The translations under genes were made by a program, and so were the position numbers. From the IMG/VR virus record IMGVR_UViG_3300029305_003259, positions 64,432 to 128,431 of that record: a stretch of 64,000 bases of DNA; one strand, 5' to 3'. Each line of letters begins with the position of its first letter. The stretch's first letter is position 1. The notes beneath the pieces were generated by a model. That model saw only the letters and a list, made by a program, of their open reading frames with translations, was not told the DNA's origin and ran no database searches. This document shows positions 37,138-49,607 of this stretch, in pieces. Origin of the DNA: a virus. Lineage: Duplodnaviria; Caudoviricetes.

Positions 37138-38010
37138 TTAATGCGCATTTAGGTCGCACTCATGCAACTGATCGATGTATTTCTTAAGAAAAGGCGATAG
37201 ATTATTATAATATTTCGTATTCATAAACGGATCCATATGTACTCCAACAAGCCATGCAAGAAATGGCGTAGTATTACTCATCCCATATGCAAGCCACCCA
37301 GAGTAATTATGATGAGAATAATAATGGGCGGTTTCGCACGCATTACCCTTATTATCAATAAAAGCCTTTACATATGGCTTGCCTATATCGTGCCATAAAG
37401 CTGCGGTTTCAATATCGCTTCCCATTCCATTTTTACATGCATAAAGATAGGCTTCTTTACAATGATTATAAATATCATTGGTATGATGTGGATTATCATG
37501 CGGAATTTTCATAGAATCCATTACTTTGAATGTATAATCAGTCGCATTAAAGTTATCAGGTAGAATAATGCTGATTTCATCAAACCCTTCATCATAAAAA
37601 GGAGGTTGAAACCTCTTAAGCATCTTATCAATAACGGCCTTGCCAACGGTTCTCTCTCTGGCAGAATCTCGCTCAATGCAGGTTTCAATAGGTGCCCAAA
37701 TTACATGGGTTTCAATTTGCACAAACTTGGGGCAAAGAGAGATGATATAAGAGCGATCCTTGCGAGTAATGTTAGTCGCGTCATAAATTACGTTCTTGCC
37801 ATCATGTAATGCATCAATTGCTCTGGATTGCATGAAAGAAAATACCATGTCATTGTCTCCCTGAATTGCTTCATCACCCCAAAGTTCTTCTCTGATTTTA
37901 TCAGAAGAAAGATGAACGGTATCAGGATGCTCATTAATATATTTTTCAGCATAAGTGGTTTTACCACTACCAGGGATTCCAACAAGTAGAATTAACTTAA
38001 CCCTATCCAT
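37138..38010 (-). CDS. Polynucleotide kinase (AAA_33) fused to a CCA-enzyme-type HD phosphohydrolase
   Basis: GIPGSGKTT, DATN, R..R; C-terminal NPHH...H...AALWHDIGKP...HYY.H. Confidence 0.88.
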   Translation of the reverse strand: MDRVKLILLVGIPGSGKTTYAEKYINEHPDTVHLSSDKIREELWGDEAIQGDNDMVFSFMQSRAIDALHDGKNVIYDATNITRKDRSYIISLCPKFVQIETHVIWAPIETCIERDSARERTVGKAVIDKMLKRFQPPFYDEGFDEISIILPDNFNATDYTFKVMDSMKIPHDNPHHTNDIYNHCKEAYLYACKNGMGSDIETAALWHDIGKPYVKAFIDNKGNACETAHYYSHHNYSGWLAYGMSNTTPFLAWLVGVHMDPFMNTKYYNNLSPFLKKYIDQLHECDLNAH

Positions 38011-38014
38011 ATAA

Positions 38015-38341
38015 TCAATCCTTTAAAAATGTATACTTCCATTCAACAGCATAGCCAGGAGCAGCAGATACTGTAATTCTGGCCAAAAGAACTTCTCTAT
38101 ATCCAGTTACACTTGATACTTCCTTCTTTTCATCCTCAATAGAAAAGCCACGAAGGTGGTAAAATAGATCTCCAATAAATCCTCGCTTTAGACCATCGAG
38201 TTGAAGCGACGAGGTAACAACAATCTCATGGTCATATTCATCCAATGCAGTAACTGACTTGAACTCATATCTATTATCGTTGTTTTGTACTGCTACAAGC
38301 TTAATTTTGTCATAAGCATAATTCATCATATAATCACCCAA
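38015..38341 (-). CDS. Hypothetical protein
   Basis: Co-oriented ORF inside the RNA-repair cluster. Confidence 0.6.
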   Translation of the reverse strand: MGDYMMNYAYDKIKLVAVQNNDNRYEFKSVTALDEYDHEIVVTSSLQLDGLKRGFIGDLFYHLRGFSIEDEKKEVSSVTGYREVLLARITVSAAPGYAVEWKYTFLKD

Positions 38342-39134
38342 TTTCTTTCTTAAATGCGTGTTTTAATACATTGATAAGAACATTGTTCATAATCTTATCC
38401 GCTTCCTTGTCAATGACAATCTCATAATTGTCCATATAGGCTTGCTTAACCATTTTTACAATTTCAACACAATTGTCTGCAAGATCAATTGCATCTTCAA
38501 GAGAATATCCGTATCCAGATTTTACACTGATTAAATAATTAGGTCTGGTAGGAATAAGGCATTCTGCATATGGAACTCCATGGATATATCTTTTTAAAAA
38601 TTCTTCACAGCGCAAAATGTGATGCAGTTGTTTGTTGTCGTAACCATACTTCTCAATTTTCTCTTTCAGCCCTTCGTATGGATGACATAGAGCTTTGCGC
38701 TTTTCGAAAACCATACCAGCAATACAATTCACAGCAGCATAATTGTTATAATGAGCAATGCGCTCGTTATTATCGAACATGGGCTGGTATAGAGATTTAT
38801 ACTCTGGATTTAAATATTTGTATTTGGTAAACAAGATTTCAATAAAGTTGATATTCTGTTTACGGAAACACTCATGCATCAATCTAATATCTTTAATGTC
38901 AATGTGTGAATTGTCGCTTCGAATAAGAGTAGTACTTACAGGTTTCTTATTAAGCACAAAATCCTCAAATGATGGAATTAGAATTGCTTTAGTGTCAATG
39001 TCGCTACCTTCATAATCTAGGTTATAGTTCTGGGAGCCCTGTAAAAAGACTCCCAAAACATTATGACCAAGAGAAGTTACGTATTCAAAATCTTCATGTA
39101 AGCGTGAATTAATTTTTTGTTCTCTATTAATCAT
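38334..39134 (-). CDS. Pol-beta-fold nucleotidyltransferase
   Basis: GSQNYNL....SDIDTK (GS...DxD), N.N..E.L, K.L.H..R. Confidence 0.85.
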   Translation of the reverse strand: MINREQKINSRLHEDFEYVTSLGHNVLGVFLQGSQNYNLDYEGSDIDTKAILIPSFEDFVLNKKPVSTTLIRSDNSHIDIKDIRLMHECFRKQNINFIEILFTKYKYLNPEYKSLYQPMFDNNERIAHYNNYAAVNCIAGMVFEKRKALCHPYEGLKEKIEKYGYDNKQLHHILRCEEFLKRYIHGVPYAECLIPTRPNYLISVKSGYGYSLEDAIDLADNCVEIVKMVKQAYMDNYEIVIDKEADKIMNNVLINVLKHAFKKEIG

Positions 39135-39961
39135 TAAATCATCACCAACTTATTTACATATTCCTTATCTTGAGTGAATATAGGAATTTCATTATCAATT
39201 ACCCACTTGTTGCGAATAACTTCCTTATCAGTTCCTTCGTTAATCTTTACTGGAACCTTGATACAGCAACTACCACGCTTTAAAGTTGTGGGATAGTCGT
39301 TCCAATTAATACCCTTTTCTACGAACAGTATATCCTGAATCTTATCGCACTTCTTACCATGTAGTTCTTTACTAGAAAAGTTGGCTTGGCCTACAGACAG
39401 AATGGAATTACGAGTGGCATCTTGCTGCCTCCAGATAAGACAATTAACCACTTCTTCTTTAGGCAGTGTAAAAACACGAGAATCAAACATGGCATAGCCG
39501 TTGGTCTTATCTAAAATAGTCTTAGAATATTTAAACTCGTCTTCATTGCCATCTACGATTTTTCCTACGTGGCTATCAACCCAATTAATCATGTTCTGTC
39601 TAAAATTATGATAGAAGCTAATTGTTGCCATACTTGCAGACACGCTTGCCATCTTCTGAATATTATTATCAAACCAAGCGTCAGCATCTCTACTCTGATA
39701 ATCTACAAGAACTAATGTGATTTCATCAGACTGTGTGTAACCAAGCACACAGCCCTGAATATTCTCACATAGATACTTCATAGTTTCTTGCATGGATTTT
39801 ACAAAGATATTATCAAATGGTTTCTTTAAGCCACGAGTGAAGGAATGGAATGCCTTGCCATCTAATCTAATAATAACTGGAAGTCTACGAGTTAGATGTG
39901 TACGAGTTATGTATTCGTACTGTTTCATGCGGTCTCCAAGAGAATCATTTTTATTACTCAT
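39134..39961 (-). CDS. thg1: tRNA(His) guanylyltransferase / Thg1-like 3'-5' polymerase
   Basis: RMK.YE, RLDGKAFHSFT, YTQSDEI, FDSR, WRQQDA.RNS. Confidence 0.95.
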   Translation of the reverse strand: MSNKNDSLGDRMKQYEYITRTHLTRRLPVIIRLDGKAFHSFTRGLKKPFDNIFVKSMQETMKYLCENIQGCVLGYTQSDEITLVLVDYQSRDADAWFDNNIQKMASVSASMATISFYHNFRQNMINWVDSHVGKIVDGNEDEFKYSKTILDKTNGYAMFDSRVFTLPKEEVVNCLIWRQQDATRNSILSVGQANFSSKELHGKKCDKIQDILFVEKGINWNDYPTTLKRGSCCIKVPVKINEGTDKEVIRNKWVIDNEIPIFTQDKEYVNKLVMI

Positions 39962-40853
39962 CTTCTCCACCTACTATTTCGTCTAAAATTCTTTCAATAT
40001 TTTCAAAATCCCAATATGGAATTTCATATAATGGTATATTTAATTTTTTACACCAATCTCGTTTTTCATTATCACGTCTTACGGTTTGTTTAAAATTATC
40101 CTCATTATCCCACCCATATCCACTGTAGTTATAGTGCTGTGTTCCATGATATTCTATAAAACACTGTAATTGATTATCATCAAAAATTGCAAAATCAAAA
40201 AATGGTCTTCTTCCAGTAGATAAAATAATGTCATTGTGTGAATATTGTGGTATAAAGGTAATCGAGTGTTCTGTTAGCCATTGATTAATTTTCATTTCGC
40301 CCTTTGATTTAATACACCCACAAGATGTTGTATTGCCATTTTTTAAATTAGTTGAATCAACTATAGATCCTCCGCCACAATCACATTTGCACTTATAGCA
40401 TACATGTCCAAATCGATTATTGGCGACACGCTCCACTACAATTAGTTTTCCAAATCGTTGACCTACCAATGATTTAAAACTTGCATCGCTCGACCTTTGT
40501 TTTTGATAACATCCACATGATTGAGTGTTTCCACTTGTTAAATTAGATGTTTCAACCGTAACAACATTACCACATTCACATGAGCATTTTTGATAAATAG
40601 GTGGAATAGGCTCAAGTACAGTAAGCTTTCCAAATTTTTGCCCGACTAAATTTAACTTATAAAAATATTTATCTTTGATGTGGCCACAACTTGTTGTGTG
40701 GCCACTGGTTAAATAGTCGGTTCTTACTTCTGTTATTTTCCCACATGAGCATTGGCAAATCCATCTAGTATATTTATCATTTCTTTTTTCTGCTCTACAT
40801 AACACTTCTAATTCGCCAAAATGTGTTCCAGCTAAATCTAGTAATTTAGACAC
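39954..40853 (-). mobile_element. Free-standing putative homing endonuclease (C.C.CG repeats plus PD-(D/E)xK-like domain)
   Basis: Three L.G..FG.L.V...C.C.CG...L.SG.T.SCG repeats, then SKGE, FDF, IEYHG.QH, D..K..WC; sits between the RNA ligase and Thg1 genes. Confidence 0.75.
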
Positions 40854-40902
40854 AAAATCACTTCCAAAATTTCATTAATTTTGTATCGTATTGAGCCTTT
40901 AA

Positions 40903-42303
40903 TTATTCTGTCTCTTCTACACCTTCTGCTTCTTCCATATCTGGAGCATCTGCTTCAACCTTTACAATACCTTCTAAAGCTTTGAAAAACCAATTTTTAG
41001 TTTTATAAGCACAGAACTTAGGACGATTTAGAATACGAACCACTACACCCTCACGAACATGAGTCTTGCCAATAGGATCAGGGCCATCGTAATACTTTTC
41101 TGCTACGCTCTTAATGTAATCACCAGGAGTGAAATTATTCATAATAGTCTCGCCATTTACAGGATCAGGAATAGTGCCCTTCCACATCACAGGGACTGTC
41201 TTAACACCCATCTGCTCACAACGATAACGCATGAAGTCAGGAGTATATTCTACTACATCGCCATCTTCATTGGTCATAGTCATGCGATATACATAAATAT
41301 CAGACTGAGGTGCAGACTCAACAGCAATACCATAACCAAGCGTTTCGTCAATTACAGGAACTGCCTTTTTACCATTTGCTTCACAACCATAGCTGAAAGT
41401 AGTAGTTTTGCCATACTGCTTAACAAAGTCCTTGTCATTAATCTTCTTGTTGTCAGCAGTTGCCATAATAGGAGTTCCAGTGTGAGTAAAGCCTACGACC
41501 TCATAGAAAATCTCCTCACCCTTCCAAAGCTTACCCTCAAAGAATTTAGAATGCTGCTCACGGAATTCATTAGAGCCATAGTATCCACCATCGTAGTTCT
41601 CAAGAACAGTGCGGCGAGTACCAGATACATAACCCCAATCATAAATGGGAGCACCTTCCTTGCGAGTAATCTTATCCCACAGAGTGCGCTTATAACCCTT
41701 AAATACAGGCAGATAAGCAGTTCTTTGGCTGGTTCCATGCATCTTTAGTGTAATCTCAATCTCGTCTCCAGGCTTGAATGCGGCAAGATTATATGCAAGC
41801 TGCTCAGTATCTGCATGCTCAATAAACAGAGGAGCTACATCAACCTTCTTCTTACGAGTGCGGCTGCCGCCAGAAGTGCCGCCACGGCGATGATTCTGGC
41901 GAGGTACATACTTACAGCAGATCTCGTGCCCGTTGAAGTTATCAATTCGGTCGCCTTCCTTGAGGGTTGCAATGTCGCCAAAAGACTCAAGAGACTTTAG
42001 AGGAAGGAACAGGCCATCAGACTTCTCGCCACGAAGCTTAATAGCAGTAACATTGCGCTTAGATTCATCCATGTAACCGCCAATGTTATTGCCATTCTCA
42101 TCCTTCTTGCGGAGTAGGTTATTTGCCTCAGCAAACGCAACGCTTACCTGCCCATCAGAAGGAAAGTAAATGCCAAGCTGATTGTCGGTATATTCCATAG
42201 AAACAATTACGGTATTGCCAAAGCACTCGCCCATCTGTAGGCGGTCAGCATTAGGGTGCTGGCGCACATTCTTAATCCTAGTAATAAATGCCGTGTATGC
42301 CAT
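40903..42303 (-). CDS. ATP-dependent RNA ligase (DRB0094/Rnl2-like, N-terminal OB domain)
   Basis: HPNADRL, LRGE.S.G, KMHGT motif I, YEVVG, REGVVVR, YK.K...F. Confidence 0.88.
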   Translation of the reverse strand: MAYTAFITRIKNVRQHPNADRLQMGECFGNTVIVSMEYTDNQLGIYFPSDGQVSVAFAEANNLLRKKDENGNNIGGYMDESKRNVTAIKLRGEKSDGLFLPLKSLESFGDIATLKEGDRIDNFNGHEICCKYVPRQNHRRGGTSGGSRTRKKKVDVAPLFIEHADTEQLAYNLAAFKPGDEIEITLKMHGTSQRTAYLPVFKGYKRTLWDKITRKEGAPIYDWGYVSGTRRTVLENYDGGYYGSNEFREQHSKFFEGKLWKGEEIFYEVVGFTHTGTPIMATADNKKINDKDFVKQYGKTTTFSYGCEANGKKAVPVIDETLGYGIAVESAPQSDIYVYRMTMTNEDGDVVEYTPDFMRYRCEQMGVKTVPVMWKGTIPDPVNGETIMNNFTPGDYIKSVAEKYYDGPDPIGKTHVREGVVVRILNRPKFCAYKTKNWFFKALEGIVKVEADAPDMEEAEGVEETE

Positions 42304-42320
42304 ATTTATTTCTCCTTACA

Positions 42321-42365
42321 TTAATTTCGTGCTGTAATAATATCAAATCGTTTACGTTTTGTCAA
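42321..42365 (-). promoter_or_regulatory. Promoter of the RNA-repair operon with a motif variant
   Basis: Minus strand TTGACA-17-TATTAT-TACAGCACGAAATTAA. Confidence 0.75.
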
Positions 42366-42418
42366 TATGTTAAATTAGTCAAAAAGCCGCAGTAAAATCT
42401 GCGGCTATTTGTTTAATA

Positions 42419-42739
42419 CTACCAATTTGCATTATAATTAATTACCCAACCATCTTCTTTAAGTTCATCCCACTGATCAAGTAACTCGCAAACATCTTTA
42501 ACGGTATTAAATCCGCCAAAATAATCGCGATTATGTGTTACATGATTAAGAACCATTTCAATATCTTCTTTAGTTAGTTGTAAATCTTCACCATACTCTT
42601 CGTCTCTATAAGGAAATAGATAAAACAAGTCCCAATTCTTACGCCAATAACACATTTGCTGTCGTTCTTCATAATCTCGTCTGCCATTTTCTTTAATAAC
42701 AGGTTTGCGGCACTTATCTATATACATATCAAGGCCCAT
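42419..42739 (-). CDS. Hypothetical phage protein (MGLDMY...YWRK family)
   Basis: MGLDMY start, YWRK, C-terminal Y.A.W. Confidence 0.75.
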   Translation of the reverse strand: MGLDMYIDKCRKPVIKENGRRDYEERQQMCYWRKNWDLFYLFPYRDEEYGEDLQLTKEDIEMVLNHVTHNRDYFGGFNTVKDVCELLDQWDELKEDGWVINYNANW

Positions 42740-42750
42740 AAGAAATCTCC

Positions 42751-43530
42751 TTACAGTTCATCATCGTCATCTTCAATTTTCTTCATTAGTGCGGCAATTG
42801 CATCCTGTACGTCTTTGCGCTGAATACTTTCAGCCATCCAAGAGACATAATCAGGCTTCTCATTATAAACATCGATAAGCTTGTGGCCTTTGTACTTACC
42901 AAATCCAAGAACATAATTATCAATATCTACTTGAACCGGTTCTGCATCATTGACCATAGGATTTTCAAATGTCATGATTAAATCCTTTCGTGACGCTAGA
43001 TAATCTGCTAGATGCACAAAACGCTGATAATCATCTAACGGCTTAGGCAGTTCAAACTTAGTCTTTTTATCTACATTCCACTGCCCCATATGGGATTCAA
43101 TACAATGAGCGATAAAATCCTTTTCTGCATTTTCCAATCCATCAGTTTCACGAACAACATTAGCCATACGCACAGGATGGTCAAATCTAGTATACTTTGA
43201 TTTTTCGTAATCTTCCTGATTGCCACTCTTACGACCATCATGAATTAATGCAGCCACACGCATGAGATCCATTTCTCTATCAGTCATGCCTATATTATAC
43301 TGTTCTAGTTCAAAAAAGAAATTCAGAAATCTGACAACGGCAACCTGATGACGCATAAGCCCGCCGTCTCCAAGCGAATACTCGGGATGATATTTGCCAG
43401 TACTAGATGCCCCTACATGCCAGACATAATCGGGCAGATCATTTAATAGGGTTACTGCAAAGTTCTTAATATCTTCATTAATAAAAGTATTTAAAATTGG
43501 AGCAACAAAATTCATCTGAGTTTCAGTCAT
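42751..43530 (-). CDS. HD-domain phosphohydrolase
   Basis: ASSTGKYHP...GGL.RH, LIHD..K, HMGQW, HLADY; C-terminal FGKYKG domain. Confidence 0.88.
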   Translation of the reverse strand: MTETQMNFVAPILNTFINEDIKNFAVTLLNDLPDYVWHVGASSTGKYHPEYSLGDGGLMRHQVAVVRFLNFFFELEQYNIGMTDREMDLMRVAALIHDGRKSGNQEDYEKSKYTRFDHPVRMANVVRETDGLENAEKDFIAHCIESHMGQWNVDKKTKFELPKPLDDYQRFVHLADYLASRKDLIMTFENPMVNDAEPVQVDIDNYVLGFGKYKGHKLIDVYNEKPDYVSWMAESIQRKDVQDAIAALMKKIEDDDDEL

Positions 43531-43532
43531 AT

Positions 43533-43775
43533 TTAGTCCTCCGTGTAATACTCTAGATCCTCAAAAATACTAGATAAAGTAATGGCAGAGTTTCTTTGGT
43601 TCATAATTGCCGCATTCGGCAGATCCTCGTCTTCGTGATTCTGAGCGAATCCAATGAGATTATCCAAAATAATCTTACAGACAGATGCAGTTTCAATTAC
43701 ATCCGCGCTTTTACAATAACTAATTTCTCCATTTTCAATCATTTCGCATACATTATATAAATGTTCTAACTTCAT
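43533..43775 (-). CDS. Hypothetical protein
   Basis: GAGGAGG RBS; coupled to the upstream ORF. Confidence 0.65.
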   Translation of the reverse strand: MKLEHLYNVCEMIENGEISYCKSADVIETASVCKIILDNLIGFAQNHEDEDLPNAAIMNQRNSAITLSSIFEDLEYYTED

Positions 43776-43933
43776 TAATATTCCTCCTCAATATCAAGCA
43801 CAATCTTATCAATGTGGCCGCAATTATCGCACTCTTCCTTCCAATTAGATAGAATCATTCTATCGATATTCTTCTTGGAAAGCTTATGCTTCTTTAGATA
43901 ACACTTCTTACATAGGGTAGCTTCTTCGTACAT
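43775..43933 (-). CDS. Small Zn-ribbon protein (52 aa, not in ORF track)
   Basis: MYEEATLCKKCYLKKHKLSKKNIDRMILSNWKEECDNCGHIDKIVLDIEEEY; AAGGAG RBS; two CxxC. Confidence 0.7.
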   Translation of the reverse strand: MYEEATLCKKCYLKKHKLSKKNIDRMILSNWKEECDNCGHIDKIVLDIEEEY

Positions 43934-43944
43934 AATTTTACTCC

Positions 43945-44355
43945 TTAATCAAAAATTTCTTGAATATAACCATTGTCACTAGTGTAAAAGATTTTTTTAA
44001 TACCAAGACTTCTAATAAGTCTCTGACAGCTCGGACAAGGTCTAGCAAGCGCCTTGGTTCCATCCTTCATCTCTCGATAAATGTAAAGCTTGACCTTGCC
44101 CCATTCGACGTTTTTACGATTCATCAATGGCAGCAAAGCATCAAGTTCCGCATGTTTCCAATGATGAAGGGTATCAACATCAAAACGTTCTCTATTAAGT
44201 TCCCTCTGTTTGGGATGCGTGACTTGGCAATTACAACCACTAGAAATCAATCTGTGCTTATACACGACTGCGCACCCGATATGCTGCCTGGGGAAGTCGC
44301 TTGTCTCTGCAACTGCTTTTGCCACATTGAAATATGCTTCATCTTTTTTATTCAT
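43945..44355 (-). CDS. Zn-dependent deaminase (cytidine/dCMP/TadA superfamily)
   Basis: HAE and PCPSC motifs. Confidence 0.88.
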   Translation of the reverse strand: MNKKDEAYFNVAKAVAETSDFPRQHIGCAVVYKHRLISSGCNCQVTHPKQRELNRERFDVDTLHHWKHAELDALLPLMNRKNVEWGKVKLYIYREMKDGTKALARPCPSCQRLIRSLGIKKIFYTSDNGYIQEIFD

Positions 44356-44407
44356 AAATACTTCCTTTAATTTTGTACTGTAATACTAGCACATGTTTGC
44401 TGTTTTG

Positions 44408-45535
44408 TCAAGACTGTTTTCGCACGTCTTCAATTAAGAAAGGCAAAATATTTAAAACCTTATTTACTTCATCATACGTGTTAAACATATCAACGGTAAT
44501 ACGAATTGTCTGCGAAGCCTGTTCATCAGTTAACCCAATGGCCTTTAAGGTTTGGCTTGGAACATTGCTATATGAATGACATGCAGATCCTTTGGAAATA
44601 CATATGCCATGCATATCACATAAGCCTAACAATGTAGATGCATCTACTCCGTCAATGGTTAAACTAATATTGCCATCTAATCTATTTTCATTAATTGACG
44701 GGCCATTTAGGTGAGTTCCAGGAATTTTAAGCAATTCATTTAATAAATTATCTCTGAAATATTTACAATAAGAATTGTTATTATACTTTCTTGTAATTTC
44801 TAGCGCTTTGCCCATTCCTGCGATAAGAGCAGTATTATAAGATCCGCCACGCAGATGATTTTCTTGACTGCCGTAAATAATAGGATTGATGTTAATGCCG
44901 TTTCTTACATATAGAAATCCAACGCCCTCTGTTGCATGAAACTTTTGCGCAGATGCCGTCATCATATCAATGCCTAGTTCATTAACATCTAGTTTACGAT
45001 GCGGATATAGTGCAGTGGCATCACAATGGAAGATACCATCAAATTTATGAATGATATTTGACAGTGATTTAATATCCTGAATTGTACCAATTTCAGAATT
45101 GGCTGCCCCAATTGACACAAATGGCTTGGTACAGTTTATAACTTCACTCCATAACAATGCATCTTCTAATTTATTAGGGTGAATATTGCCAAAATTATCA
45201 TTCTTAATAAAAAATGTTTTACCAATATGCGGAATCGCATCAATTATAGATGAGTGTTCCAGATATGTTGTCAAAAAGCTATATTCTTTTCTTGAAATGC
45301 CGCTGATTGCCATACTGTTTGCCTCACACCCAGAAGAGGTAAAAATGATTTCTTCTGGTTTGCAATTAATATCGGCAGCAATTTGATCACGTACGTTTTC
45401 AATGATTTCCTTAGACTTGTGGCCAAACTCATATACAGAACTTGCATTGCCCCAAGAATTGCTTAACACATCTGTGATTGTTTCAATGACTTCCTTATAC
45501 GGCTTTGTTGTTGCCGCATTATCAAAATAAATCAT
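44408..45535 (-). CDS. iscS: Cysteine desulfurase (IscS/NifS)
   Basis: IYFDNAATT, GNASS, EIIFTS, NSEIG, SAQKFH (PLP Lys), SKGSAC (catalytic Cys). Confidence 0.95.
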   Translation of the reverse strand: MIYFDNAATTKPYKEVIETITDVLSNSWGNASSVYEFGHKSKEIIENVRDQIAADINCKPEEIIFTSSGCEANSMAISGISRKEYSFLTTYLEHSSIIDAIPHIGKTFFIKNDNFGNIHPNKLEDALLWSEVINCTKPFVSIGAANSEIGTIQDIKSLSNIIHKFDGIFHCDATALYPHRKLDVNELGIDMMTASAQKFHATEGVGFLYVRNGININPIIYGSQENHLRGGSYNTALIAGMGKALEITRKYNNNSYCKYFRDNLLNELLKIPGTHLNGPSINENRLDGNISLTIDGVDASTLLGLCDMHGICISKGSACHSYSNVPSQTLKAIGLTDEQASQTIRITVDMFNTYDEVNKVLNILPFLIEDVRKQS

Positions 45536-45945: not shown

Positions 45946-46031
45946 TGGAGCAGCAGGTGGGATTCGAACCCACGCGGGCTTACACCGACGGCTTACAAGA
46001 CCGTTCCAATCAACCACTATGGGACTGCTGC
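45946..46031 (-). tRNA. tRNA-Thr(TGT) with an unusual long variable arm
   Basis: GCAGCAG/CTGCTGC acceptor, ACGGT-CT TGT AA-GCCGT, 14-nt variable region, TTCGAAT loop, CCA. Confidence 0.8.
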
Positions 46032-47285: not shown

Positions 47286-47412
47286 ATATTTGGTGGATCT
47301 AAAAGCAGAGCCAGTACAGCTTCTGACATCTTTAAAACTCCCCACCAAGTTTTGTTTAATGGATTCTGCATCTAGAATGTATCGGCTTATACGCCGATAG
47401 CAGACCCCAAAA

Positions 47413-47489
47413 TGGTACGCCATACTGGACTCAAACCAGTGACCTACCGCTTAGAAGGCGGTTGCTCTGTTCAACTGAGCTAATGGCGC
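47413..47489 (-). tRNA. tRNA-Arg(TCT)
   Basis: ACCGC-CT TCT AA-GCGGT, CCA. Confidence 0.92.
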
Positions 47490-47492
47490 ATA

Positions 47493-47569
47493 TGGTTCCC
47501 AAGGTGAGGATCGAACTCACAGTCTCCCGATTATAAGTCGGGTGCTCAGACCAATTGAGCTGCTTGGGA
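47493..47569 (-). tRNA. tRNA-Ile(TAT)
   Basis: CCCGA-CT TAT AA-TCGGG, A73, CCA. Confidence 0.88.
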
Positions 47570-47575
47570 ATATAA

Positions 47576-47650
47576 TGGTAGCCCGTAGGAGAATTGAACT
47601 CCTGCCTCTGGAATGAGAATCCAGCGTCTTAGCCACTTGACTAATAGACC
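47576..47650 (-). tRNA. tRNA-Glu(CTC) with a weak acceptor stem
   Basis: CTGGA-TT CTC AT-TCCAG; acceptor GGTCTAT/ACGGGCT has three G-U pairs and one A-C mismatch; CCA. Confidence 0.75.
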
Positions 47651-47675
47651 ATATAAAGCTCAATTTTTTGAGCTT

Positions 47676-48380
47676 TTAATTTTTTCTATAATCTAAACTA
47701 TGATAAGACATGTTATATTTTTTACACCATTTTCTAACTGTATTATCGCTGACTTCATATTGTCGCCCAACCATGCGAAAATTGCCTTGATTGTTAATGA
47801 TACAATTGATTAATTCTTCTTTACTTGGACATTTAGTTGATTGTGAAACTTTTGCACAGCAACTTTTACACAACATTGCATCTTTACTAATTTCTTTTCC
47901 ACAATTAGTGCAATATTTTTTCTTTTGTTCATGAATTGGTCTGTTTTTTCCACCAAAAGTATCTAATTGTCTATCACAATTAGGGCAAATCCATCTTAAA
48001 TTTTCTAATCTATCATCATGGTTGTCTCCATTAATATGATCTAACGTTAATGATAATTCTTTTCCATTCCAAAATGGTTCTTGTCCACATATAGAACATT
48101 TATATTCTGAATACCCACCTTTTAAATACCATTTTCTTAAAGTAGATTGGTCTGCTGTACTATTTAATATAAAGATATTTTCTGGTGTTCTTTTAATCCT
48201 AGGTGTATTCTGAAAGTGATTAATTGAGATTCCATATTCAATTATTTTATTTTTAATTAATGTATAAACATCTCCTGTTTTAGCAGAATACCCAATCTTA
48301 TTTACGACCTCAGCATAAGAATTACTATTTTTAATTATTTCTTCTAATGCATCTTTACTAAAAGTATCAATTAAACTCAT
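47676..48380 (-). mobile_element. Free-standing HNH homing endonuclease
   Basis: YKCSICG...LDHINGD..D.RLENLRWICPNC, extra zinc ribbon, C-terminal HTH; AT-rich insert between two tRNA-Glu genes. Confidence 0.9.
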
Positions 48381-48411
48381 TATGTCATCAACTCAATTGT
48401 CAATAAATATC

Positions 48412-48468
48412 TACAAGCTATCAGTTAAAACAGGTCATACCACGTGAAGGTTGCTTGTACAATGACCC
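48412..48468 (-). ncRNA. Theta ribozyme (minimal HDV-like self-cleaving RNA)
   Basis: P1 GGGUCAU/AUGACCU with first G-U pair; P2 UACAAGC/GCUUGUA; P3 ACC/GGU; L3 UUCACGU; G after P1; CUGA junction; begins right after the tRNA discriminator. Confidence 0.85.
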
Positions 48469-48541
48469 TACTCCCAACGGGATTCGAACCCGTGACTTCG
48501 GAATGAAAGCCCGATGACTTAGTCCACTTGTCGATGGGAGC
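48469..48541 (-). tRNA. tRNA-Glu(TTC), no encoded CCA
   Basis: GCTCCCA/TGGGAGT acceptor plus A73, TCGGG-CT TTC AT-TCCGA; followed directly by the ribozyme. Confidence 0.92.
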
Positions 48542-48703
48542 ATTTGAGTAGGTTAGGATTCCCTACAACCGCACATCACACCTCTCTTGGCCTGTCATTT
48601 TCGCCACTATTTTTTCAAGATACCTTGCGCTTCAGCATCTTTACTTCAATAGCGTTAAGCTACTTGACACTAGGGCTGGTGTTCATTTGCTCTCTGCCCT
48701 CGG

Positions 48704-48779
48704 TGGTGGAGCTATGCGGAATCGAACCGCAGACCTCTTCCTTGCAAGGGAAGCGTTCTCCCAACTGAACTATAGCCCC
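48704..48779 (-). tRNA. tRNA-Ala(TGC)
   Basis: GGGGCTA/TAGCTCC with G3-U70, CT TGC AA, CCA. Confidence 0.95.
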
Positions 48780-48931
48780 ATATAAAAAAGGCCTTTTAAA
48801 GTGATGCCTAGCACTCCACCTCAACGGGCGGATTTTCCTCCGAGTAAGACTTAGCACATACAATCATAGGCTTAATCCTCCTTGTTGGATTTCGGTTTAG
48901 TTTTTTTAGGACATACACCGAAACAAGTCCT

Positions 48932-49005
48932 TGGTTGCGGTCGAACGATTTGAACGTTGTCTCTAGGTTATGAACCTAGTGAGCTACCATTGCTCCACCA
49001 CCGCG
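48932..49005 (-). tRNA. tRNA-Met(CAT), initiator-like, apparent 8/4 fold
   Basis: C1xA72 mismatch, CTAGG-TT CAT AA-CCTAG, 4-bp T-stem AACG/CGTT, CCA. Confidence 0.8.
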
Positions 49006-49010
49006 ATATT

Positions 49011-49087
49011 TGGTAGCCCTGGTCGGATTCGAACCGACACTATACGGATTTTGAGTCCGCTTCCTCTGCCAATTGGGATACAGGGCC
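49011..49087 (-). tRNA. tRNA-Leu(CAA) with a short variable loop
   Basis: GCGGA-CT CAA AA-TCCGT, 5-nt variable loop, A73, CCA. Confidence 0.87.
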
Positions 49088-49094
49088 ATATTCA

Positions 49095-49153
49095 TTAATT
49101 TTGTGTTGTCTTTTAAGTGTTGTTATTATAACACATATTTTTTAGTTTGTCAA
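49095..49153 (-). promoter_or_regulatory. Sigma-A promoter driving the tRNA array
   Basis: Minus strand TTGACA-17-TATAAT, then the CAACACAAAATTAA box just before tRNA-Leu(CAA). Confidence 0.85.
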
Positions 49154-49158
49154 GAGGT

Positions 49159-49607
49159 TTTGCTACCGCCCAGCCCAGAGGTCAACCTATGGATAATGGC
49201 CACTATTCCAAACCTTTAACCTGGGATTTTATCAACCTTTATCGGACTCAACGCTATCCTATAATATTATATAAATCATCAATAATTAGTAGCGGATAGC
49301 ATTATCTACGCCCTCTTTACACCTTTGACCAAAATGATCTTTGAGCGCATCAACCACAGATGCAATAAAAACTTTGAATCTTGAACATTGAACCTTGATT
49401 CTTAAATTTTAATCTTTACAGTAAAATATAATATTATCTAATATTATAAAATCTTTTCAATCTATAAAGATTTTATGTATAGAATACAAGATTAGCAGTC
49501 TTGTTCTAAACCAAGTTTGCGATTACTTTCTTTAAATTTTTAATATCCCTCTAAGTAATCAAAAAGAATAGATAAGCAGTCATTTTAGGTTTTCGGGCGG
49601 TAGCAAA
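49159..49607 (-). ncRNA. Candidate large structured ncRNA (~450 nt) after the DIP1984-like gene
   Basis: Perfect 13-bp terminal inverted repeat TTTGCTACCGCCC/GGGCGGTAGCAAA, several internal hairpins, 7-nt periodic tract, no ORF in the track. Confidence 0.65.

Follow-up and report, generated by a model that had tools for sequence, protein, structure and literature searches.

A candidate theta ribozyme at the head of a homing endonuclease insert at the 3′ end of a phage tRNA-Glu gene

Introduction

Theta ribozymes are minimal HDV-like ribozymes that occur next to tRNA genes in gut Caudoviricetes. Their description in 2024 presented them as devices for trimming tRNAs, with a link to stop-codon recoding (Kienbeck et al. 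2024, PMC10879173). They cut at most 5 nt, and mostly no more than 1 nt, away from the tRNA 3′ end, the tRNA usually lacks an encoded CCA, and a DRB0094-family RNA ligase is present in 54.5% of theta phages (PMC10879173). R2 and L1Tc retrotransposons also begin with HDV-like ribozymes (PMC3414825, PMC3185411). The mammalian CPEB3 ribozyme is active but a poor catalyst, and its P1.1 is weak and molten in crystals (10.1101/2022.09.22.508989). The theta paper (PMC10879173) makes no mention of homing endonucleases, and a full-text literature search returned no paper in which a theta ribozyme is paired with such an enzyme.

Here, we describe a locus in which both occur together, located in a 64,000-nt stretch of phage DNA (hereafter the window). 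Like the published theta ribozymes, the candidate described below lacks P4, carries the catalytic C as the first residue of J4/2, is predicted to cut at a tRNA 3′ end and follows a CCA-less tRNA; like the theta phages, its carrier is a gut phage with an RNA-ligase-like gene in the genome. Unlike them, it shows a P1.1 of UC/GU, the phage uses the standard code without a suppressor tRNA and probably infects a Firmicute, and the ribozyme opens an insert carrying a homing endonuclease gene. With the CPEB3 ribozyme (Rfam RF00622), it shares an identical 7-nt L3, a GU after P1′ and a P1.1 consisting of one G-C pair plus U-U, whereas the CPEB3 ribozyme contains a P4 helix, resides in a mammalian intron and has no link to a tRNA or a nuclease.

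That phage tRNA clusters can harbor homing endonuclease genes is textbook knowledge, with SegB of T4 and the F-Tfl enzymes of T5 as examples. As in these cases, the nuclease gene studied here lies between tRNA genes and is present in some and absent from other related phages. Unlike these cases, which are not known to involve a self-cleaving RNA, the insert begins precisely where the tRNA ends, takes away the CCA and brings a ribozyme with it. The arrangement also resembles R2 and L1Tc, where the ribozyme separates the RNA of the element from that of the invaded RNA gene, with which it is co-transcribed. Those elements are eukaryotic, RNA-copied and equipped with a reverse transcriptase, whereas the phage insert would be a DNA-level homing element whose upstream product, the tRNA, must stay functional; we use the R2 comparison as an analogy only. 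Homing endonuclease genes within group I introns and inteins likewise belong to self-removing elements that invade essential genes harmlessly, but here no splicing or religation would take place, only a single cut at the gene end.

The locus comes from a phage without recoding and has a ribozyme as the first part of a selfish nuclease insert, and natural comparators exist for both states. If this link is true, it would explain the origin and movement of some theta ribozymes and give homing elements, in addition to introns and inteins, a third harmless route into essential genes. The 57-nt ribozyme sequence is a short and directly testable candidate for cleavage.

Results and Discussion

The tRNA array and the likely host

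The window covers the second half of a 128,431-bp IMG/VR viral contig with a completeness rating of 78%. Using ARAGORN and Rfam, we identified 16 tRNA genes on the minus strand between positions 45949 and 50372, 15 of which are followed by CCA. An initial annotation made from the sequence alone had counted 18 tRNA genes, 17 of them with CCA; these numbers were too high, but the sole CCA-less gene is indeed tRNA-Glu(UUC) (48541-48469, minus strand; Rfam tRNA score 58.9 bits). It ends at its discriminator A at position 48469, which abuts the ribozyme sequence with a gap of zero nucleotides, just as the annotation had read this junction. The second tRNA-Glu gene that it had noted behind the HNH gene is tRNA-Glu(CUC) (47650-47576, minus strand; ARAGORN, Rfam 55.7 bits). 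This gene encodes its CCA, is located directly 3′ of the insert and, by comparison with relatives, belongs to the tRNA-Glu sequence type of the phage's own family. CCA-TAT is the usual spacer within this array.

A promoter scan revealed three perfect 12-of-12 matches to the sigma-70 consensus within 1.4 kb, all on the minus strand (50483-50455, 50404-50375 and 49153-49125). These promoters presumably drive the tRNA array. They match what is expected of a Firmicute-type host, not of the Bacteroidota that published theta phages typically infect. The promoter at 49153 is the nearest one upstream of tRNA-Leu, -Met, -Ala and -Glu, the ribozyme and the HNH gene. Because no promoter was found between the ribozyme and the HNH gene, we infer a single transcript from 49153 that reaches from tRNA-Leu to HNH. 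A search for RNA sequencing runs containing the locus gave no match. The DNA polymerase of the phage has its closest counterparts (52-57%) in large phages of Clostridium and Clostridioides, and the host is therefore probably a gut Firmicute.

A theta-type ribozyme candidate at the end of tRNA-Glu(UUC)

For the ribozyme search, we used the theta layout P1-J1/2-P2-P3-U-P1.1-NCGY-P3′-P1′-P1.1′-L4-J4/2-P2′ taken from the supplementary data of PMC10879173. The resulting descriptor matches a single site in the 128,431-bp genome, a 57-nt sequence on the minus strand (48468-48412). Descriptors with the catalytic C swapped to A, G or T gave no match in the genome, and the original descriptor gave none in 300 first-order Markov random genomes. 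In the parse of positions 48468-48413, P1 comprises 7 bp, the one at the cut site being a G.U, and is followed by a J1/2 of 3 nt and a P2 of 7 bp, which contains one A.A beside P3 like many published theta members and can be lengthened by an extra U-A pair to 48412 (P2 of 7-8 bp). P3 is ACC/GGU, L3 has 7 nt, a short L4 of 5 nt stands in place of P4, and a J4/2 of 5 nt with the catalytic C at its first position (48424) leads into P2′. In this parse, the helices form the nested double pseudoknot of the theta layout, and the predicted cut between 48469 and 48468 falls exactly on the tRNA-Glu end, where the initial annotation had placed it. Its theta assignment is likewise supported by the full fit to the layout, the uniqueness of the match in the genome and its absence from random genomes.

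The single deviation from the theta layout concerns P1.1, in which UC faces GU, resulting in one C-G pair plus U.U. The published theta examples that we compared have two pairs at this place, and UC/GU is absent among the about 130 published theta sequences compared. A P1.1 with only one Watson-Crick pair counts against the explanation that we consider best (see below); in CPEB3, an identically built P1.1 has been called weak. In an Rfam search, no ribozyme family was significant and CPEB3_ribozyme was the only one to appear (10.3 bits, E = 6.6, threshold 35); the Rfam models are unable to score the pseudoknot. Nested folding of the ribozyme, alone or together with the tRNA, recovers P1 only with z-scores near 0, a method that is uninformative for pseudoknots. 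By its layout, the 57-nt sequence is a candidate new member of the published theta family.

A ribozyme subclass with a CPEB3-like core

A core-only pattern consisting of P3, L3, P1.1′ and L4 was run on viral contigs and retrieved eight loci. Complementary P1 and P2 strands are present in all eight, though the pattern did not require them. After adding members from other loci, the subclass comprises 12 distinct sequences, all of which lie directly next to a tRNA or tRNA-like gene. Within these 12 members, P1 forms on average 6.0 of 6 pairs with its own partner strand compared to 3.4 with swapped partners, and P2 forms 6.4 of 7 compared to 2.9. Each position of P1 and P2 shows two to five pair types, that is, compensatory changes, while the U.U in P1.1 is fixed in 12/12 members. 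The eight loci found by the core pattern provide the cleaner evidence, because some of the 12 came from a descriptor that requires pairing. Judging from these sequences, the P1.1 deviation is not private to the locus in the window.

One TAG-recoded phage (L149, minus strand) contains two units of this subclass (3722-3002 and 2333-1640), which consist of tRNA-Thr, theta ribozyme and a GIY-YIG gene, and of tRNA-Pro, theta ribozyme and an HNH gene.

The HNH gene and the 814-nt insert

The gene behind the ribozyme encodes a predicted HNH homing endonuclease of 234 amino acids (48380-47676, minus strand; phrog_10822, E = 4e-45). It starts 32 nt past the ribozyme end, in agreement with the roughly 30 nt given in the initial annotation. 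The leader in between (48411-48381, minus strand) is colinear with that of the closest HNH relative, L158, and contains neither a strong ribosome-binding site nor, in the promoter scan, a sigma-70-type promoter. The protein is composed of an HNH nuclease core, a zinc ribbon and a helix-turn-helix tail; the corresponding Pfam matches (HNH_3, HNH, Zn ribbon, HTH) are all below threshold. All residues invariant in 30 relatives are kept (including His115, Asn127 and Cys95/98/132/135), indicating that the gene is intact by motif. Its GC content of 27.5% is lower than that of the 25 other ORFs of the window (36.0 ± 2.9%; z = -2.9).

Right after the HNH stop codon, a scan for terminator-like structures revealed a 9-bp hairpin (47675-47655, minus strand), which is possibly a weak terminator and forms the right end of the insert. 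Ribozyme, leader, HNH gene and hairpin together make up 814 nt (48468-47655), exactly the segment that is missing from the empty allele described below. No copy of the tRNA 3′ end is present after the HNH gene within positions 47400-48800, because the insert begins after the discriminator base.

The HNH tail (residues 154-231, window positions 47676-47920) is 45-47% identical to the tail of one GIY-YIG enzyme (L075 = L151, one contig), which also sits after a theta ribozyme of the same subclass. The similarity is just as high to the tail of an endonuclease-like ORF of different build in L070-L074. On these identities, the shared zinc-ribbon and helix-turn-helix tail is a case of domain shuffling between nuclease types.

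An empty allele and a ribozyme-less relative

The initial annotation had suggested searching related phages for empty alleles, with a CCA-bearing tRNA-Glu and neither ribozyme nor HNH gene. We compared contigs from four animal-faeces metagenome runs with positions 47300-49200 of the window and found such an allele, on short contigs, in two of the runs (X3 and X4). The contigs contain the joint 47654-GG-48469, which on the minus strand reads as the tRNA-Glu(UUC) end, CC, A-TAT and a tRNA-Glu(CUC)-like gene. The CC restores the CCA, and positions 48468-47655 (814 nt) are missing as one block. The contigs have a length of 142 nt, with 29 nt on the tRNA-Glu(UUC) side, and are about 9% diverged (5 differences in 54 nt on the tRNA-Glu(CUC) side); the empty allele therefore stems from a diverged relative.

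Copies of tRNA-Glu(UUC) that are 88-89% identical, encode CCA and lack the ribozyme were found on two metagenome contigs and one viral contig (L353, L354 and L011), while the tRNA-Glu(UUC) genes of the phage's own family are of a different sequence type and all encode CCA. The identical HNH protein is encoded on 15 contigs, five of which have readable DNA and come from separate samples. In these five, the region comprising tRNA, ribozyme and HNH gene is 100% identical, so that no allelic variation is visible.

In further searches, the empty junction had no match in viral contigs, and its six matches in species-representative genomes were chance hits, none of them within a tRNA. Two junction matches in metagenome contigs contain the same tRNA-Glu plus CCA, but then continue into tRNA-Asp instead of tRNA-Glu(CUC). 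None of 59 viral contigs with the last 22 nt of the tRNA contains a ribozyme or is a close relative, and among 69 relatives found via the neighboring gene of 217 amino acids the tRNA arrays are very different, with no locus directly comparable. Megablast of the region against the INPHARED phages gave no match.

The closest relative of the HNH protein (L158, 72% amino acid identity) is encoded behind the same tRNA lineage, without a ribozyme and without CCA. Apart from the 56-nt ribozyme, the window locus and L158 are colinear from the tRNA end into the leader, and the homology stops at the same right edge as the joint of the empty allele. The upstream tRNA-like gene (L158:1228-1301) has acceptor, D and T arms as in tRNA-Glu(UUC), but a different anticodon arm (CGA), and scores below the Rfam tRNA threshold; this tRNA has possibly decayed after the invasion.

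A theta ribozyme between tRNA and HNH gene was found in none (0/80) of the further HNH relatives in viral contigs. Most of these relatives are located in tRNA arrays, many of them at a distance of 23-150 nt from a preceding tRNA on the same strand, often one for Glu or Gln. Since both L158 and these 80 relatives lack the ribozyme, ribozyme and HNH gene are separable modules, which could be gained or lost separately, rather than an obligate unit, and a two-step origin of the present locus is as possible as a single insertion. The one-cassette model of the initial annotation is thus only partly upheld: an empty allele lacking both parts and the approximately 20-fold nuclease excess described below speak in its favor, the ribozyme-less L158 and the 80 relatives against it. 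Independent variation of the two parts, which the annotation had named as refuting evidence, is seen to that extent (L158 at 72%; 0/80 with a theta ribozyme).

Upstream of many ribozyme-less HNH relatives (L163, L167, L169, L174 and L182), we observed the sequence TTTGGACAA, followed after a few bases by GTTCAA and then an AT-rich box. This motif may be a promoter of their own.

Homing endonuclease genes behind theta ribozymes

We combined the matches of a general theta pattern with the subclass loci, resulting in 65 unique ribozymes with at least 600 nt of downstream sequence. A homing endonuclease gene follows within 250 nt after 13 of them (11 GIY-YIG, 2 HNH), and most of these genes begin 17-36 nt past the ribozyme. 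The tRNAs preceding such units are Leu, Met, Pro, Gln, Thr, Glu, His and one Gly-like tRNA. By comparison, the same loci contain 316 unique tRNAs without a ribozyme, of which no more than 4 are followed by a homing endonuclease gene, and the sole GIY-YIG gene among these four is actually located behind a theta-like variant overlooked by the scan. Fisher's test yields an odds ratio of about 20 (p = 5e-8), a value to be taken as an indication and not as a calibrated probability, because the sequences are not phylogenetically independent. For one GIY-YIG family, 14/14 members found in the analysis lie behind a theta or theta-like ribozyme.

The overlooked variant (L150, ~2582-2640 in minus-strand orientation) precedes a GIY-YIG gene and differs by a P3 mismatch and by an L4 that is long and AT-rich; with strict descriptors, the number of such ribozymes is therefore underestimated. 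In five theta plus GIY-YIG loci (L308, L296, L267, L295 and L152), a second copy of the final 12-15 nt of the upstream tRNA stands right after the GIY-YIG stop codon; in L152, this copy includes the CCA. These repeats suggest that the insert entered within the 3′ part of the tRNA, bringing along a replacement end and the ribozyme.

A proposed role for the ribozyme and its alternatives

On balance, we consider it fairly probable that the 814 nt at the tRNA-Glu(UUC) end are an insert headed by a theta ribozyme, a separable module that renders the invasion harmless. The insert (48468-47655) would have come to lie between the discriminator of tRNA-Glu(UUC) and the next tRNA, displacing the CC of a once-encoded CCA, and the 3′ end of this tRNA-Glu lineage is the putative target of the HNH nuclease. 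Transcription from the array promoter at 49153 would yield one RNA containing tRNA-Leu, -Met, -Ala and -Glu, the ribozyme and HNH. Self-cleavage between 48469 and 48468 would then free a tRNA-Glu ending in A73 with a 2′,3′-cyclic phosphate, which could be healed by the kinase/HD protein of the phage or by host enzymes before the CCA is completed by the host CCA-adding enzyme. The HNH message would be left with a 5′-OH buried in the folded ribozyme. As the ribozyme would thus cut the tRNA free, invasion of the tRNA 3′ end would do no harm, and the module probably keeps the invaded tRNA usable. Three natural states fit this reading: the empty allele, HNH alone with a decayed tRNA (a single case, L158), and ribozyme plus HNH with an intact tRNA.

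Alternatively, ribozyme and nuclease gene could be independent neighbors without any functional tie, an ordinary theta ribozyme maturing a CCA-less tRNA and either the HNH gene having landed behind it or the ribozyme having been added later. Relatives of the phage do carry theta ribozymes without a nuclease gene (L082 and L097), no homing endonuclease gene follows 52 of the 65 unique theta ribozymes, the HNH family mostly does without ribozymes, and the window differs from L158 by the precise presence or absence of 56 nt at the tRNA junction. We nevertheless regard mere coincidence as unlikely, if by no means negligible: both parts are missing from the empty allele in a single 814-nt gap, nuclease genes are in 20-fold excess behind theta ribozymes, and the 14/14 GIY-YIG family members point in the same direction. 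The P1.1 mismatch raises the further concern that the ribozyme is an inactive relic which has kept its shape and lost cleavage, with one Watson-Crick pair left in P1.1 and ribozymes of the same CPEB3 core described as poor catalysts. A U.U fixed in 12/12 subclass members, which have covarying P1 and P2 and all directly adjoin a tRNA or tRNA-like gene, is hard to reconcile with decay, and so are a locus that is 100% identical in five readable contigs from separate samples and an intact tRNA-Glu(UUC) without CCA. A relic is accordingly very improbable in our judgment.

In Bacillus, RNase Z can cut CCA-less tRNA precursors. The nearest cultured relatives of the phage infect Clostridia, and with RNase Z in such hosts, release of the tRNA may not depend on the ribozyme. 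It could then serve the nuclease gene instead, setting the 5′ end of the HNH message and tuning its stability or translation, while host RNase Z frees the tRNA anyway. The lack of a promoter between ribozyme and HNH gene, the weak ribosome-binding site and the probable Firmicute host, in which CCA-less tRNAs are RNase Z substrates, are in line with such a role; moreover, 5′-OH ends generated by the glmS ribozyme change mRNA decay via RNase J1 in Firmicutes. Most HNH relatives, however, do without a ribozyme and are preceded by their own promoter-like motifs, and the upstream tRNA has decayed in L158, where the ribozyme is absent, which points to a role for the tRNA. We consider a function confined to the nuclease gene improbable, and prefer the reading of a harmless insert whose ribozyme protects the invaded tRNA.

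As a wider and distinctly more tentative proposal, many theta ribozymes could be RNA-level insulators of homing-endonuclease cassettes that invade phage tRNA ends, rather than stand-alone devices for maturing tRNAs. Homing would then spread ribozymes from tRNA to tRNA, and the window, the empty allele and L158 would represent three stages of one process. By analogy, such a ribozyme would be to an RNA gene what an intron or intein is to a protein gene.

Genes surrounding the array

Just downstream of the array, a run of genes related to RNA ends and tRNA modification is located on the minus strand (37138-45535). Based on Pfam matches, it includes a protein with an OB-fold and an RNA-ligase-like domain (42303-40903, minus strand; below threshold), a Thg1-like protein, i.e., a 3′-5′ polymerase (39970-39134, minus strand), and a kinase (AAA_33) combined with an HD domain (38010-37138, minus strand). 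The run also contains another HD protein, a deaminase of the cytidine/dCMP type and a class-V aminotransferase of the cysteine desulfurase type. No PolyA_pol match indicative of a CCA-adding enzyme was detected in the 128-kb record, which is 78% complete.

On the other side of the insert, we noticed a sub-threshold Rfam match to RAGATH-27 (49607-49520, minus strand; 36.4 bits, threshold 76.1, E = 0.026). It is located within a non-coding stretch of ~450 nt that extends from the gene of 217 amino acids to the 49153 promoter.
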